DNA of 63,465 nucleotides, counting the filler, from Collodictyon triciliatum (lineage: Eukaryota), in the NCBI GenBank assembly GCA_043381765.1. It is 28 parts of 28 records of this genome, joined end to end, with 100 filler letters (N's around TTAATTAATTAA, not from the genome) between each part and the next. Parts side by side here need not be neighbours in the genome. Positions count along the whole stretch, not along the records: positions 2,317 to 4,532 come from JBHJMP010009266.1; 27 more parts are not named here. One strand, 5' to 3'. Made by a program: the position numbers and the translations under genes. A model generated the notes under the pieces. The model saw only the letters and a program-made list of their open reading frames with translations. It searched no databases and was not told the origin of the DNA. Position 1 is the first letter of the stretch; each line of letters starts with the position of its first letter. Below, piece by piece: positions 2,317 through 20,505 of this stretch.

Positions 2317-2475
2317 TCTGATAAGTCCGGTTTGGCCTTCTGCCGGAAAGGATGTGTTCTGTAAGGCCTATGACGCACGAGTAGACAAACGACAGGAAGG
2401 GCATCAAAGACAAAACGGGAGTATGATTTTGGAAGAAGGATAAAGTGAGACACCAAGGCGCCGGATACACACCGC

Positions 2476-2680
2476 ACAATATTTTGTCTACAATTCCCCT
2501 TAAAATGTAATTTCATGCCACTTTACATTTGTAACTAGGAGTATACTATCTTTCGACTGGCAAACTTGTTCCGCTAGTATCCAAGGTCTCACCACTTTTT
2601 TTCGCAGAGGTTGTGTGGTGGTTAAGGTTGCCAGGAAAGACCCAACAGCCTGTTTTTTAGAGTAAGTTGTTTTCGAAGAA
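2476..2680 (-). ncRNA. Putative Fanzor omegaRNA scaffold plus flanking guide
   Basis: Lies directly 3' of the Fanzor stop. Inverted repeats: 2503-2510/2523-2530 (perfect 8 bp), 2534-2538/2574-2578, and 2590-2595/2615-2620 enclosed by 2585-2589/2638-2642. Candidate element end at ...TTTTAAGGGG (2496). Boundaries are inferred. Confidence 0.55.
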
Positions 2681-4311
2681 TTAAAAGAGCTTTGTTGAGT
2701 ACATTATTAACGCTGCTAAGTCCCTTGTCAAGAATACACTTTGTTTACTTTCTGAGTGATTGCATTCTTTACACATGAGACATCTATACACCTTTTTTGT
2801 ATTTCCTTTCAGTTTCATATATTCCAGTTCTTTTTCGCAGTTGCAGCACATCTTGGAGGTTCTAAATTCATCTACACTAACTGTTTCAAACCGTTTGGAT
2901 AATATTTTTCGTAATCCTCTTCTGATTGTTGGCATAAAATTTTTCATCTGACATTTTCTGCTCCAGTCTCCATACGCCAGTACAACATCCTTGCCAAATG
3001 TCTTTTCGATTCGGTCCATAAACAATTGTTCACTTCTTTTTGTGTTAACATACTGTATCCATCTCATCTTTCGAAAAGTTACTTATTCATAAAATCCGGA
3101 AAGTTCTATCTGGTATCTTGAATACATAGATACATATTTTATAAATTATGTATAATCGACCGAGCGTGTATTACGTTCACTCAGTTCTGTATCTAAATCG
3201 ATTAAAGATGCTCTTGATGTCTCAAACTGCTGATTCTCTTCAAAAATCATGTGAACAAAAGAAACAGAACTTTGTAAATCTGTTGCCATATGTATATCCC
3301 TGAAGCTTCGTACTTTTCTTGCGCAAGAGTATTTTGTGATTTTTAAGAGATTTGCTATCATGTCTTGTTTGATGAGCCATGTAAAGTAATTTCTTACCTG
3401 TCTCATCCACCATGTAAACCAAATAAACTTGCCTGCGTCCACTCCAACTATTTTTTTTTTTTTTTTGTCGCTAATAAAGATAACTGCTCTTCGGAAAGTT
3501 CATCTATATATACATATTCTTGGATTTTTGATTAAATAGGAATTTTGAATTTGAAATACCTTTCTTTTCAAATAATCATGACACCACCAAGCCGTCTGTT
3601 TGTATCATGCATTTAAAATTGTAGTATCTTTGATGAAAAACTTTCTTCTTCATTTCAAAGAACTTATTCCATAGGGTCTCTTTGCATCCTGATATGTTCT
3701 TCTTTAATGATGTTTTCCAGATAATACTAATAGATCTATCAAATATGCAGTTTCTAGAGTAATATGTCACGGTATATTGTTAGTTCTTATAGAGATTGGT
3801 TGAAGCAGTTTGGTTACAATGTCCTCAAAAATGCGATTCATGTAAATCAGACGTGGAATGTACTTATTTGGATTGACTTTGGCGACATATTCGATACCTT
3901 TTACAATATCGCTGGTAATGATATGATGCAAATGCATTGTAGCCCATTCTTTATATTGTTCTGGTATTTCGAGATTCTTGAAGATGACTTCCTTTTTAAC
4001 TTTCGTAACTCTGCCTTTTTTTAATAGCTTCCGTAACATTCTCATCTTTAGGAACTGTTTGATTTATAAAGCGCAGTAACCTCTTAACAAAATACTCCTT
4101 AATGTTATTGTGATACGCTGTTAACATTTGCTTCGCCAAGTACGGTAATACATGAGAGTCCAACCAACGGAAAGCGTTCTTCTCGGGACAAAAGGAATCG
4201 AAAATAAGTAAGAGATAAAAAGTCATGTATTTACTGATACGTGTTTTTTTTTTAAAAAAAAAAACTTGCCAGTCTATCTTGTGAAACTATTCCGACTGTC
4301 TAATAAGCGTA

Positions 4312-4352
<41 letters not shown>

Positions 4353-4532
4353 ATTCATCGATTGTTGGGAGTTGTGATTTCAATACGTAGCATCTTGCAA
4401 ACAGATAAGTGTCGGTAACCAAATTATGACACAATAAAACTGTATCTTGATTTTGTCATAGTCATCCGCATTCTTTACAATCGACTTTGGAGATGTTTTC
4501 ACATTTCGATAGCCTGGTTTTACAGACTTTAG
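2681..4532 (-). pseudogene. Fanzor1 (TnpB-like RNA-guided RuvC nuclease), frameshifted, 5' end lost in gap
   Basis: Joining frames gives the Fanzor1 motif order: KTSPKSIV..DTVLLCHNLVTDTYLF..LPTIDE; LPYLAKQMLTAYHNNIKEYF; IQTDG; YIDEL..KKIVGVDAGK (RuvC-I D at 3437-3439); TELSERNTRSVDY..FRKMRW..NTKRSE; LAYGDW; VDEFRTSKMCCNC (RuvC-II E at 2867-2869); CKEC; TRDLAA (RuvC-III D at 2720-2722). Multiple stops and frameshifts, some at homopolymer runs. Confidence 0.9.
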
Positions 4533-4632
4533 NNNNNNNNNNNNNNNNNNNNNNNNNNNNNNNNNNNNNNNNNNNNTTAATTAATTAANNNNNNNNNNNN
4601 NNNNNNNNNNNNNNNNNNNNNNNNNNNNNNNN

Positions 4633-4870
4633 ACAATAATAACAACAATAATAACAACAATAATAACAACAATAATAACAACAATAATAACAACAATAAT
4701 AACAACAATAATAACAACAATAATAACAACAATAATAACAACAATAATAACAACAATAATAACAACAATAATAACAACAATAATAACAACAATAATAACA
4801 ACAATAATAACAACAATAATAGCAACAATAATAGCAACAATAATAGCAACAATAATAATAACAACAATAA
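4633..4870. repeat. Microsatellite (AAC/AAT mix); representative of the simple repeats at most contig ends (ACTCTTTT, AGAAG, ACAT, GATGAA, AAAAG, AAAAGCAT, AAC, etc.)
   Basis: Directly visible tandem repeats abutting the gaps. Confidence 0.95.
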
Positions 4871-16635: not shown

Positions 16636-18421
16636 TTGCCACTTTTTTCGACAGGAGTACTTATTTGCAGTCATTTTGGCGACACAAAAGGGCAAACCTA
16701 TCTAATTCGAACATTGTCTTGCCATAATAATGGCGTGCGTAGTGTTTTCGTTACAGCTGATGTTTCAAAACTTGTTTCGGGAAGCGATGACAACACAATC
16801 AAAATCTGGAATCTAACAGATGGAAGTTTGATTCGAACGCTGACTGGCCATATTGACAACGTGTATAGTGTTTTTGTTACAGCTGATGTTTCAAAAATTG
16901 TTTCAGGAAGCAAAGACGAAACAATCAAAATTTGGGGAGTTTGCGAAGCAGGTTTCTTTTATGACGTAGAATCTTAAATATGCTCATTATGCCCCTCAGG
17001 AACATACAACCCTTCCATCGGCTCTACGAGCTCCAGTGCGTGTATTTCATGCGCTGCTGGAACATACAATCAATTAACCGGACAATCAAGTTGCTCATCA
17101 TGCCCTTCAGGTACATACAGTAATAAAACAAGTAATATTAATTGCAATGAATGTGAACCAGGAACCTTCAATGATGAAGTACACCAAGTCCAATGCAAGA
17201 TTTGCAGAGATGGAACATTCAATCCTGATTTTGCATCAATTAATATCTCTTCTTGCATTAAATGCCCAATAGGAACTTACGGTACCCAATCAAAAGATAA
17301 ATGTGATTTATGTCCTGTAGGCACATTTAACAATAAAACAGGATTATTTGGTGTGAATTCATGTATCTATTGTTATAATGGAAGTTTTAGCTCAGATGAT
17401 AGGTCATCGTGTATTGTATGTTCTTCAGGTTCCTATCAGCAAGAGGGAGTATCTAAAGACCCTTCTTCATGTATTCCATGCCCGAAGGGGACATTTAACC
17501 CCAATACCGGTTCATACGGAAATATGTCTTGCAATGAGTGTCCTCAGGGCACCTGGAACGATAAAGAAGGCCAGACATCATGCATATCGTGTCAAGCTGG
17601 AACAAAAAACAATATAACTAGTTCATTTGATTCATCATCATGTCAATCCCAACCCCAACCCCAACCCCAATCTCAATCTCAATCTCAATCTCAATCTCAA
17701 TCTCAATCTCAATCTCAATTCCAATCTAAATATCATTCTCAGTCTCAGTCTGAGTCTCAATCCCAATCTCAATCTCAACCTCAGTCTCAATCTCAATCTC
17801 AATCTCAATCTCAATCTCAATCTCAATCTCAATCTCAATCCCAATCTAAATATCAATCTCAATCTCAATCTCAATCTCAGTCTCAATCCCAATCTCAATC
17901 TCAATCCCAATCCCAATCCCAATCTAAATCGCAATCTCAATCTCAATCGCAATCTCAATCTCAATCTCAATCCCAATCGCAATCTCAATCCCAATCGCAA
18001 TCGCAATCTCAATCTCAATCCCAATCCCAATCGCAATCGCAATCACAATCACAATCTCAATCCCAATCGCAATCGCAATCTCAATCTCAATCCCAATCGC
18101 AATCGCAATCGCAATCACAATCACAATCTCAATCCCAATCACAATCACAATCTCAATCGCAATCGCAATCGCAATCGCAATCGCAATCGCAATCTCAATC
18201 TCAATCTCAATCTCAATCCCAATCCCCATCCCAATCTCAATCTCAATATCAGTCTCAATCGCAATCCCCATCCCAATCTCAATCTCAATATCAGTCTCAA
18301 TCGCAATCGCAGTCTCAGTCTCAGTCTCAATCCAAATCCCAATCTCAATCCCAATCCCAATCCCAATCCCAATCCCAATCCCAATCCCAATCCCAATCCC
18401 AATCTCAATCTCAATCCCAAT
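16636..18421 (+). pseudogene. WD40 repeats + Cys-rich (CxxCPxGTY, TNFR/GCC2-like) repeats + Ser-Gln repeat, interrupted by one in-frame TAA at 16975-16977
   Basis: Two WD40 repeats (GH..VSGSDDNTIKIW). The frame stays open after the TAA through about ten CxxCPxGT[YF] units and into (SQ)n. ORFs 16636 and 17353 are in the same frame. Confidence 0.7.
17644..18421 (+). repeat. Coding hexanucleotide repeat (TCNCAA)n encoding poly(Ser-Gln)
   Basis: About 130 units, with variation mostly at the synonymous Ser third position. Confidence 0.9.
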
Positions 18422-18656
18422 NNNNNNNNNNNNNNNNNNNNNNNNNNNNNNNNNNNNNNNNNNNNTTAATTAATTAANNNNNNNNNNNNNNNNNNNNNNN
18501 NNNNNNNNNNNNNNNNNNNNNAAGATGAAGATGAAGATGAAGATGAAGATGAAGATGAAGATGAAGATGAAGATGAAGATGAAGATGAAGATGAAGATGA
18601 AGATGAAGATGAAGATGAAGATGTGAGAAATTCCTCATCAAACAGCGGATGGTTAC

Positions 18657-20505
18657 TTGGAAGCGCATATATCGAAGGACAAGCTTCAAGGCCGAATATT
18701 CAGGTGCATCTGATTTACCATTTTCCTGTAAAAAAGTGGATTAGAAAAAGTTTCGGGTTCTGCTGCTGAGTTTTCATATTTCCAGGCAACAAGTGAAAAT
18801 ATAAAAATAGTAATAAATGTAACATATTGGTTTATAAAATGGTAAATAGTAAAAGAGGCGATACACTATAAAGGATGGTCATCAATCTCTTAACTAGCTG
18901 GCTAATAAATACTGGGCGATTTGAGAGGCAAATAATTACCTGAGCTCGTCTTATGGTTAGAAGATTCTCGCGCTCTTTGACAATGCTATCCTCCCATTCA
19001 GCATCTGTTTCAGGACAGATGACAATATCTTTCATAGAGTCGCTCATTATCTCGAACATCTCATCTGTTTATCATGCATATTATTTCATAGCTTCAATAT
19101 AAATGTGCGTTATCCTCTTAAAATTTAATCCTTTCAAAAACCATATTCCGTGAAAGTGAAAATGAGATAAAGACAATGAAAAAAAAAAGGATGAATAGAA
19201 ACACACCCAAGTCGCTGTCGTCTGACCCAATAAAGCTCTCCAAGTGCATGTGAAGTGAAAGTCTTATCGCGTGAAGAGCCACTTGTTGCTGATTGGTTTA
19301 TTAGAGCAAAGCAATGAATATGCCCCTACTTGGGGTGATTAAAGAATATGCCCAGAAGTAAGACGCGAGACACAAAATAGAGCAATATACCAGCATTTGC
19401 ACGTCCACAAAAACCCATTCGTCTTTTTGATTATTAACTCGGAAATCTCCTCGAAAGGTGGAATGGAAAGTCTCCAAAAAGAACTCAGGGGCAGTAATGA
19501 TTCCAGATGATGGAGTCAAACATCGCCTAGTTTGGGTTATACTTAAATCGATATAGAAGGACAACAGAAATCCCATTATAGCACTCTTTATTGCATGAAC
19601 TTTTATTATTATGATTAGATTAAGATTAAATTCAGGATACAGAATTCATACAAACCGTGCAACCACCGACAGTGCGTATGCAAAAACAACAAGTGTATCC
19701 TGACTATGATTGTGCTCAGGACTCGCTGTTGGGAGCTCATTAGCACGTTCCCTGTAAGAATAAAGCACAGAATTTACTCATGTACTTGACTAAATCAAAT
19801 CTAATCATATTTATGGCAAAGATTTTTTCTTGAAATGCATGAACTGAACAATCGACAAATTACTTTTCCTCTCTGGAGCTTACACAGTGTTCTATCCATC
19901 GACCATAAAACTTCCTGAAACATTCCAATGAGACTCCGCCTATCGCTTGATCAAAATCTTCATCTATAAAACGAATTAAAGATTATACAAATGAGCATAA
20001 GGGCATCTTGTTTCTGCATTCTGAATCGATTAAATTTTTAACGGCAACTGGGAAGATAAAAGAAAGAAGGAAGTTAGAAATTTCACCCCATCTTTTGGAA
20101 AAGATTCCATCCACTTCGCTTGGATTCACGTTCATGATTTCATAAATTTTCCTTTGAACGGCCGGGTTATTTACCCAGTTGTAAAAAGACGGGTGGCGAG
20201 TGGCGAAGAAAATGACACTGTAAACATAATATCTATGGGACAGTCAAAATGTTCAGCATCGATATCATGTTGCAAAATAATAGTGTCAAGTGCATGTTAT
20301 CGTAATTCCAATAGGTATATGCCCGGTATGGATTTGGGCAGCGTAGTTGGTGGGAAATAATTGCTTGGCGACTCACTTTAATATGCTTTTTCGGGAGTCA
20401 TAGGACAAGAAAATACTCTGTGCTGGGTTAATCATTACACTGTAGGTTCGGAGAACATATTGATTGTTGACATGTCTCCAACCAAATAAGCGGAGCTTCA
20501 AACAT
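18657..20505 (-). CDS. PCNX: Pecanex-like protein, C-terminal conserved domain, partial, spliced
   Basis: Exons read YVLRTYSVMINPAQSIFLSYDSRK; DEDFDQAIGGVSLECFRKFYGRWIEHCVSSR; QDTLVVFAYALSVVAR; FRGDFRVNNQKDEWVFVD; IRLSLHMH; IVICPETDAEWEDSIV; EYSALKLVLRYMRF. These are colinear with the pecanex C-terminal motifs. Confidence 0.85.

Follow-up and report, generated by a model that had tools for sequence, protein, structure and literature searches.

Genome editing has an interest in Fanzors, which are compact RNA-guided nucleases of eukaryotes; how they pass between giant viruses and their hosts is under study. According to published work, intact members of the TnpB type follow a guide RNA that the 3′ end of the element encodes. 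Fanzor1 is the eukaryotic and giant-virus descendant of TnpB, and its intact members of about 620–650 amino acids would act as omega-RNA-guided double-strand DNA endonucleases with a split RuvC site (Asp, relocated Glu, Asp) and a zinc ribbon. Here we analyze a Fanzor1-type pseudogene in a stretch of 63,465 bases from the Collodictyon triciliatum assembly GCA_043381765.1 (the window below), which consists of about 28 unplaced contigs of roughly 2.2 kb each, artificially joined in order of descending length. The gene lies on one of them, JBHJMP010009266.1. Very probably this contig carries a neutrally decaying, non-functional Fanzor1 copy of a giant-virus-type subfamily that has multiplied in a eukaryotic genome.

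Structures have been solved for the Fanzor1 proteins of Spizellomyces punctatus, Parasitella parasitica and Guillardia theta (PDB 8gkh, 9cf0 and 9cer). The window copy resembles them in its whole-length profile, in the RuvC arrangement of Asp, relocated Glu and Asp, in the Gly at the old Glu place and in a C4 zinc ribbon that follows the Glu and precedes the RD motif. In contrast to them, it is a pseudogene with 18 lesions for which no omega RNA, inverted repeats or target duplication is shown. The fungal and cryptophyte proteins are distant from its subfamily, and only profile searches span the whole length. The Fanzor1 proteins borne by Tc1/mariner-type elements of giant viruses (PGv-1 of Phaeocystis globosa virus, Bao and Jurka 2013; Fanzor families A–C of the Chlamydomonas endogenous giant virus) belong to the same protein subfamily according to our tree and the Atlas. 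Passages of PMC3627910 treat mariner-borne Fanzor1 in giant viruses, and those of bioRxiv 10.1101/2024.09.03.611062 describe elements with Fanzor1 and a Tc1/mariner transposase in the endogenous virus, Fanzor-only and degraded forms, and a fragment in a host chromosome. We observed the layout given in these passages in the relatives that we fetched: inverted ends that enclose a transposase and Fanzor1, short forms with Fanzor alone, and degraded copies. The window copy differs from these elements in that its truncated contig shows no transposase, no viral-type inverted end and no conserved RNA motif, and in that it shares a long separate branch with P0001, an intact metagenomic protein. Moreover, the published passages describe few near-identical copies, whereas the window copy appears in other sequencing runs as a diverged repeat of many copies. 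TnpB (IS200/IS605 and IS607) and Fanzor2 share the core of RuvC domain and zinc ribbon, and there is a weak match to Pfam Cas12f1-like_TNB. They differ from the protein of about 640 amino acids considered here, with its long N-terminal half typical of Fanzor1, and the carrier in the relatives of the window copy is of the DDE_3 type, not IS605 or IS607.

Results

Family identity and catalytic residues

The 133-amino-acid C-terminal fragment of the window gene (2681–3082) served as query for relatives. It retrieved 12 longer proteins, seven of them of about 620–650 amino acids, with P0001 (648 amino acids) as the best match (E 1.7e-55). In a frameshift-aware alignment, 375 of 625 aligned residues were identical between P0001 and the window copy (60%). 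The gene and its contig have the following extent:

2614..4532, minus strand: Fanzor1-type pseudogene, collinear with residues 12–642 of P0001, 5′ end lost at the contig edge
2317..4532: whole contig of the finding, 2216 bases, with linkers on either side at 2217–2316 and 4533–4632

When P0001 was compared with the whole window by tblastn, the matches were confined to this contig (E 6e-78 and 2e-61). Of the 1458 six-frame fragments of the window, a hidden Markov model of the family matched seven, which are collinear on the minus strand and come without exception from the same contig (best E 9.8e-62). By these measures of similarity, the Fanzor1 matches are far above chance. Neither tblastn nor blastn revealed a second Fanzor1 copy in the window.

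A family profile built from the seven intact relatives matched three distinct PDB sequences at E <= 1, all of them Fanzor1: Parasitella (1e-61), Spizellomyces (1.3e-57, covering profile positions 4–606) and Guillardia (1.2e-43). No TnpB or Fanzor2 chain was among its PDB matches at this threshold. The C-terminal fragment of the window matched the same three PDB Fanzor1 proteins and nothing else at E <= 0.01. Among the Pfam families, used in a set without PF26935, the fragments gave only a weak match to Cas12f1-like_TNB (E 2.1e-4) below the curated cut-off. An earlier reading of the window from its sequence alone (the sequence-only reading) had assigned the gene to the Fanzor1 family, and these profile matches bear the assignment out. 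The six motifs that it listed are all present, in the given order, on the minus strand in the near full-length gene:

3591–3599, minus strand: TDG
3431–3448, minus strand: VGVDAG
3437..3439, minus strand: RuvC-I Asp codon GAC in VGVDAG, aligned with D383 of Spizellomyces Fanzor1
2963–2974, minus strand: YGDW
2969..2971, minus strand: Gly codon GGA of YGDW at the canonical RuvC-II Glu place, 34 residues ahead of the alternative Glu
2837–2875, minus strand: VDEFRTSKMCCNC
2867..2869, minus strand: alternative RuvC-II Glu codon GAA in VDEFRTSK, aligned with E541 of Spizellomyces Fanzor1
2771..2848, minus strand: C4 zinc ribbon, CCNC ... CLMCKEC (second part CLMC, then CKEC, from 2771)
2720–2728, minus strand: TRD
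2720..2722, minus strand: RuvC-III Asp codon GAC of TRD, aligned with D606 of Spizellomyces Fanzor1, with a frameshift directly after it (2718)

In the structural work on Spizellomyces Fanzor1, residues D383, E541, N385 and D606 are described as coordinating two magnesium ions, with D606 as catalytic residue (passages of PMC10432273, Nature 2023). The D, E and D of the family fall on residues 777, 935 and 1000 of the 8gkh chain, which after subtraction of the fusion offset are D383, E541 and D606. The three RuvC catalytic codons are intact in the window copy, as had been claimed (GAC, GAA and GAC as listed). The claim of a rearranged RuvC-II also holds: at the canonical Glu position, where Fanzor1 has an inert residue (Gly or Pro), the window copy has Gly (GGA), and its Glu is found in the DE motif instead. 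This matches what passages of PMC10530073 present as a Fanzor feature, namely Gly together with an alternative Glu, and what passages of PMC3627910 give as conserved in Fanzor1 (G500 and E536). The latter source also gives the Fanzor1 pattern D-X-[TS][TS]-X-X-C4-X-RD. In the window copy, the order RTSKMCCNC ... CLMCKEC ... TRD spans 2720–2875 and the C4 zinc ribbon lies between the [TS][TS] motif and RD. Because of the profile and PDB matches, the aligned D, E and D, the change of Glu to Gly and the relocated Glu, the window copy is a Fanzor1 by descent.

Decay of the gene

The alignment to P0001 revealed 11 frameshifts, near 4447, 4155, 4010, 3705, 3514, 3455, 3423, 3313, 3293, 2718 and 2656, and seven in-frame stops at 4300, 4252, 4231, 3767, 3576, 3146 and 3083. 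One stop is TAG, four are TAA and two are TGA. Six of them stand opposite K, P, C, L, K and R of P0001 and the seventh opposite a gap. As read from the printed contexts, eight of the 11 frameshifts are away from homopolymer runs and three are at or beside T runs (near 3455, 4010 and 2656). In addition, a homopolymer has expanded within the frame:

4313..4351: run of 39 A (T on the coding strand), in which a Phe-Phe pair of P0001 is expanded to 13 Phe codons

Here ETFFLYAL of P0001 corresponds to ECFFFFFFFFFFFFFLYAY in the window, and a further long A/T run lies at 4244–4264.

Two ways in which the breaks could be reconciled with a working gene were considered and rejected. Recoding of stops does not apply: all three stop kinds occur at varied residues, so that no alternative genetic code restores the frame, and 11 frameshifts stand beside them. 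Introns at the breaks do not apply either, as the alignment is collinear and its breaks are without long gaps. The window copy has no open frame that could yield the protein, and its membership in Fanzor1 is by descent alone. The copy is dead, as the sequence-only reading had stated, and cannot make a nuclease. That reading had counted five open reading frame fragments, which is too few: the gene is in more pieces, with 11 frame changes and seven stops to be crossed. Its term "locus" likewise goes too far for a 2.2-kb unplaced contig without an upstream end, a recognizable inverted end or an omega-RNA-like element.

Other copies of the repeat

Indexed sequencing runs share few sampled words with the contig (<= 0.10); they comprise freshwater, lake and subsurface metagenomes and two small runs, with no RNA run listed among them. 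Four runs were compared with the contig at 80% likeness, giving 135 (X1), 13 (X2), 360 (X3) and 319 (X4) matched contigs; organisms may be mixed in these runs, and the counts are not copy numbers for the source genome. In X3 and X4, copies of 80 to over 99% likeness extend across 2539–4532, with up to 26 contigs over one place. Contigs at least 99% alike make up 39 of the 360 in X3, 37 of the 319 in X4 and 12 of the 135 in X1. The sequence is therefore a diverged multi-copy repeat in other runs.

Copies from these runs carry insertions or deletions at or near frameshifts of the window copy (2717, 3423, 3524, 3712, 4016, 4156 and 4446), and T>A at the 3767 stop. Since many other-run contigs differ at lesion sites, those lesions are private to some copies. 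At position 3423 in X3, an extra base is present in 107.5 of 175.4 of the depth and missing from the rest. Because part of the other-run depth shares the lesion state of the window copy, there is a hint that already broken copies multiplied. At frameshift places such as 3423 and 4446, the lesion is missing from only part of the other-run depth.

The summed depth is about 0.1–2 in the bin 2465–2538 versus 1.6–53 in the bin 2539–2612, with a loose end at 2537. With cover near nothing below about 2538, this position marks the 3′ boundary of the repeat and delimits two further features:

2537..2613, minus strand: likely 3′ (right) end region of the repeated element, between the last aligned codon and the point at which the match to other copies ends
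2317..2536: flanking sequence beyond the repeat, not covered by other-run copies save one X2 contig

This one contig of 151 bases from X2 (lake water) covers 2425–2575 and crosses the repeat boundary without differences.

Element architecture in giant-virus relatives

From pattern scans we collected 155 relative loci, 80 metagenomic and 75 from a viral collection, many of them in giant-virus bins. Giant-virus genes surround the Fanzor gene at the four nearest viral loci, namely VLTF3, mRNA capping enzyme, ribonucleotide reductase small chain and DUF5755. All four also have a DDE_3 (Tc1/mariner/IS630-type) transposase immediately upstream of Fanzor, encoded on the opposite strand, and a DDE_3-like match was found in 86 of the 155 loci. 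Comparison of loci delimits an element of 3.3 kb (locus L081, 3631–6952) with inverted ends of roughly 33 nucleotides. A conserved 31-nucleotide end occurs in 68 of the 155 loci, 31–193 bases past the stop, and most of these have a matching inverted copy upstream. Elements at the end-bearing loci measure 2.06 to 6.06 kb, and the short ones contain Fanzor alone. In these Tc1/mariner-type elements of giant-virus contigs, the two inverted ends covary between loci in their inner letters.

The motif GTTG[ATG]TTTT[AGT]C is found in 53 of the 68 end-bearing loci, either between the gene and the right inverted end or overlapping the last codons. A hairpin follows it in 27 of 29 distinct sequences, built from 17 different complementary stems and with a mean energy of -4.39 kcal/mol versus -0.80 kcal/mol in shuffles. 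Hairpins were counted per sequence because the ungapped alignment of the motif region put them out of register. RNAalifold on the viral 3′ regions returned only a weak consensus (-1.66 kcal/mol), as the alignment is gappy. Examples of motif and hairpin are L023:7013-7054, L083:6837-6878 and L096:2600-2641; where the motif overlaps the gene, it reads SVDFT. Motif and hairpin together constitute a candidate guide-RNA scaffold such as would be expected of a TnpB-type nuclease.

Family size and viral kinship

Among 1.84 billion proteins, 7421 cluster representatives match the profile at E <= 1e-3, of which 1522 do so at E <= 1e-30. In the Atlas, P0001 adjoins clusters named DUF8286 (PF26935), of whose labeled members 92–100% are Viruses, mostly Nucleocytoviricota. 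A literature search on DUF8286 did not find the term. Proteins of the viral collection are about 30–47% identical to P0001. In an unrooted FastTree of 119 rows, 45 of them drawn from the viral collection, the window copy and P0001 group together with a support of 100, on a long branch of 0.63. Both belong to a clade of 28 rows (support 95) that includes seven rows from viral contigs, and the nearest forks have supports of 89–90. Because the tree is unrooted and the sampling favors viral rows, we draw no direction of transfer from it.

Other contents of the window

The contigs of the window are separated by 27 identical linkers of 100 bases, each consisting of 44 N, TTAATTAATTAA and 44 N (for example 2217–2316, 4533–4632 and 62285–62384). 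As the Fanzor1 contig is bounded by such linkers, the adjoining window sequence is not its genomic context. Since the contig terminates at 4532, about the first 11 codons of the gene are missing and the upstream half of any element is absent. Its guanine-cytosine (GC) content of about 33% is like that of the adjoining window pieces. An Rfam scan of the whole window gave no match at gathering scores, and a tRNA scan of the window found no gene.

Other contigs bear fragments of cellular eukaryote genes: Ephrin-receptor-like repeats, leucine-rich repeats (LRR), GT92, WD40, TAP42, Ras, DEAD and Pecanex. Among them are these features:

33270–34547, minus strand: GT92 glycosyltransferase
16978–18477, plus strand: Ephrin-receptor-like cysteine repeats
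58119–59600, plus strand: LRR proteins
19304–19645, minus strand: Pecanex fragment

For the GT92 open reading frame, nine of ten relatives at E <= 1e-10 are EukProt transcriptome proteins, with a best identity of 54%. This gene content fits an under-sampled microbial eukaryote. The cellular eukaryote genes on other contigs and the EukProt relatives of GT92 are consistent with the description of the source as a protist genome but do not prove the "protist" part. The window further contains a 651-amino-acid open frame at 27908–29863 on the minus strand with no Pfam family and no usable Atlas match, a long (AATAAC)n-type microsatellite at 4633–4870 on the contig next to that of Fanzor1, which reads as poly-Asn in one frame, and an internal gap of 206 N at 54087–54292 in one piece.

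Discussion

The history that we consider very likely would run as follows. The subfamily (Pfam DUF8286) is carried in giant viruses by Tc1/mariner-type elements of 2–6 kb, with shorter Fanzor-only derivatives beside them. A typical element starts with a 31-nucleotide inverted end and a DDE_3 transposase; after these come the Fanzor1 gene, a non-coding stretch of conserved structure and a second inverted end. A member of the subfamily would have entered a eukaryotic genome and multiplied to many diverged copies, of which the window copy would be one, broken by 11 frameshifts, seven stops and a homopolymer expansion. The window copy probably originated from a mobile element and resides in a host nucleus. 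Intact members of the family probably cleave DNA under RNA guidance, as suggested by homology to the solved Fanzor1 structures.

Several results weigh against this history. No DDE_3 match was found anywhere in the window (best E 0.81); the contig itself ends about 11 codons inside the gene, short of the upstream side. The viral-type 31-nucleotide inverted repeat ending in GGTGTAAA is not on the contig, where the best matrix score is -2.7 on a scale on which true ends reach at least 30.9 and the 95th percentile of shuffles is 2.4. The conserved viral RNA motif is absent from the window, and the 3′ region 2525–2725 on the minus strand folds no better than shuffles (z +1.02 in a single-sequence fold). 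Furthermore, the support is only 89–90 at the forks nearest the viral rows, in a row set biased to the viral collection (45 of 119), and P0001, the nearest relative, is of unknown origin and shares the long branch with the window copy. Finally, the many copies are known from other, possibly mixed runs. Within the end region of the repeat itself (2537..2613, minus strand), there is no recognizable inverted end and no omega-RNA-like motif. A weak look-alike of an inverted end at 2512–2542 scored -5.4, no better than chance, and was rejected.

The contig could instead be a fragment of an integrated (endogenous) or co-assembled giant virus, so that the Fanzor1 relic would be viral rather than a dispersed transposon copy of the host. 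The nearest labeled relatives do lie on giant-virus contigs, the Atlas clusters are 92–100% viral, degraded Fanzor elements are described inside an endogenous giant virus in passages of bioRxiv 10.1101/2024.09.03.611062, and the flank on the contig amounts to only 220 bases without a match. However, such a fragment would have to account for 18 disabling lesions and for the diverged multi-copy repeat indicated by hundreds of contigs of 80 to over 99% likeness in two small runs. The proteins of the viral collection, measured against P0001, reach only about 30–47% identity. The other window contigs are without a viral hallmark gene, although this is weak evidence as the contigs are unlinked. We regard a viral fragment as unlikely. 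The contig might also come from a contaminant, another eukaryote or its virus, and be uninformative on the assembled organism. It is unplaced and only 2.2 kb long, and matching words occur in freshwater, lake and subsurface metagenomes. The sole point against contamination is the GC content of about 33%, which agrees with that of the neighboring window pieces; still, we judge this origin quite improbable.

Even less credit is due to the idea that the organism has an intact or almost intact gene and that the breaks are errors of an unpolished small contig. It would be in keeping with a short unplaced contig, with the three of 11 frameshifts at or beside T runs and with the A/T runs at 4244–4264 and 4313–4351. 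Yet seven stops of three kinds cannot stem from errors in homopolymer length, and eight of the frameshifts are outside any homopolymer. Contigs with a likeness of at least 99% recur in the independent runs X3, X4 and X1, and several frameshift places keep the state of the window copy in part of the depth, such as 3423 in X3. Sequencing or assembly error as the cause of the breaks is therefore very improbable, and a decaying host copy of a viral-type Fanzor1 remains the explanation that we prefer.

The suggestion that the family may have intact members can be upheld in part. P0001, which comes from metagenomes, is intact and 60% identical to the window copy, and contigs of other runs are without several of the frameshifts and the 3767 stop. 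The prospect of a potentially new programmable nuclease was overstated in the sequence-only reading, given 7421 cluster representatives and giant-virus genes as the nearest labeled relatives. The family is already known and large, and its sharing between viruses and hosts is in print; the window copy adds one new member. The lists of published Fanzor surveys may already include close relatives of it. As the family is represented by thousands of intact sequences, the practical gain from the window copy is small, and neither an enzyme nor a guide RNA nor a target motif that could be put to use can be obtained from it.

With the window copy, a further decayed relic on the host side joins a subfamily known otherwise mainly from giant viruses. 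This agrees with the published view of giant viruses as vehicles that bring such elements into eukaryotes. The value of the window copy would be greater only if intact copies of the long-branch lineage, with their ends, were recovered. Tentatively, and with considerable doubt, we put forward that a giant-virus-type Fanzor1 lineage left its mariner carrier, colonized the nuclear genome of an under-sampled freshwater microbial eukaryote and amplified there to tens of copies, some of them already broken, with P0001 representing living host-resident members. If true, this lineage would constitute a distinct usable Fanzor1 subgroup with its own ends and guide RNA, and a clear instance of the spread of an RNA-guided nuclease from virus to host.

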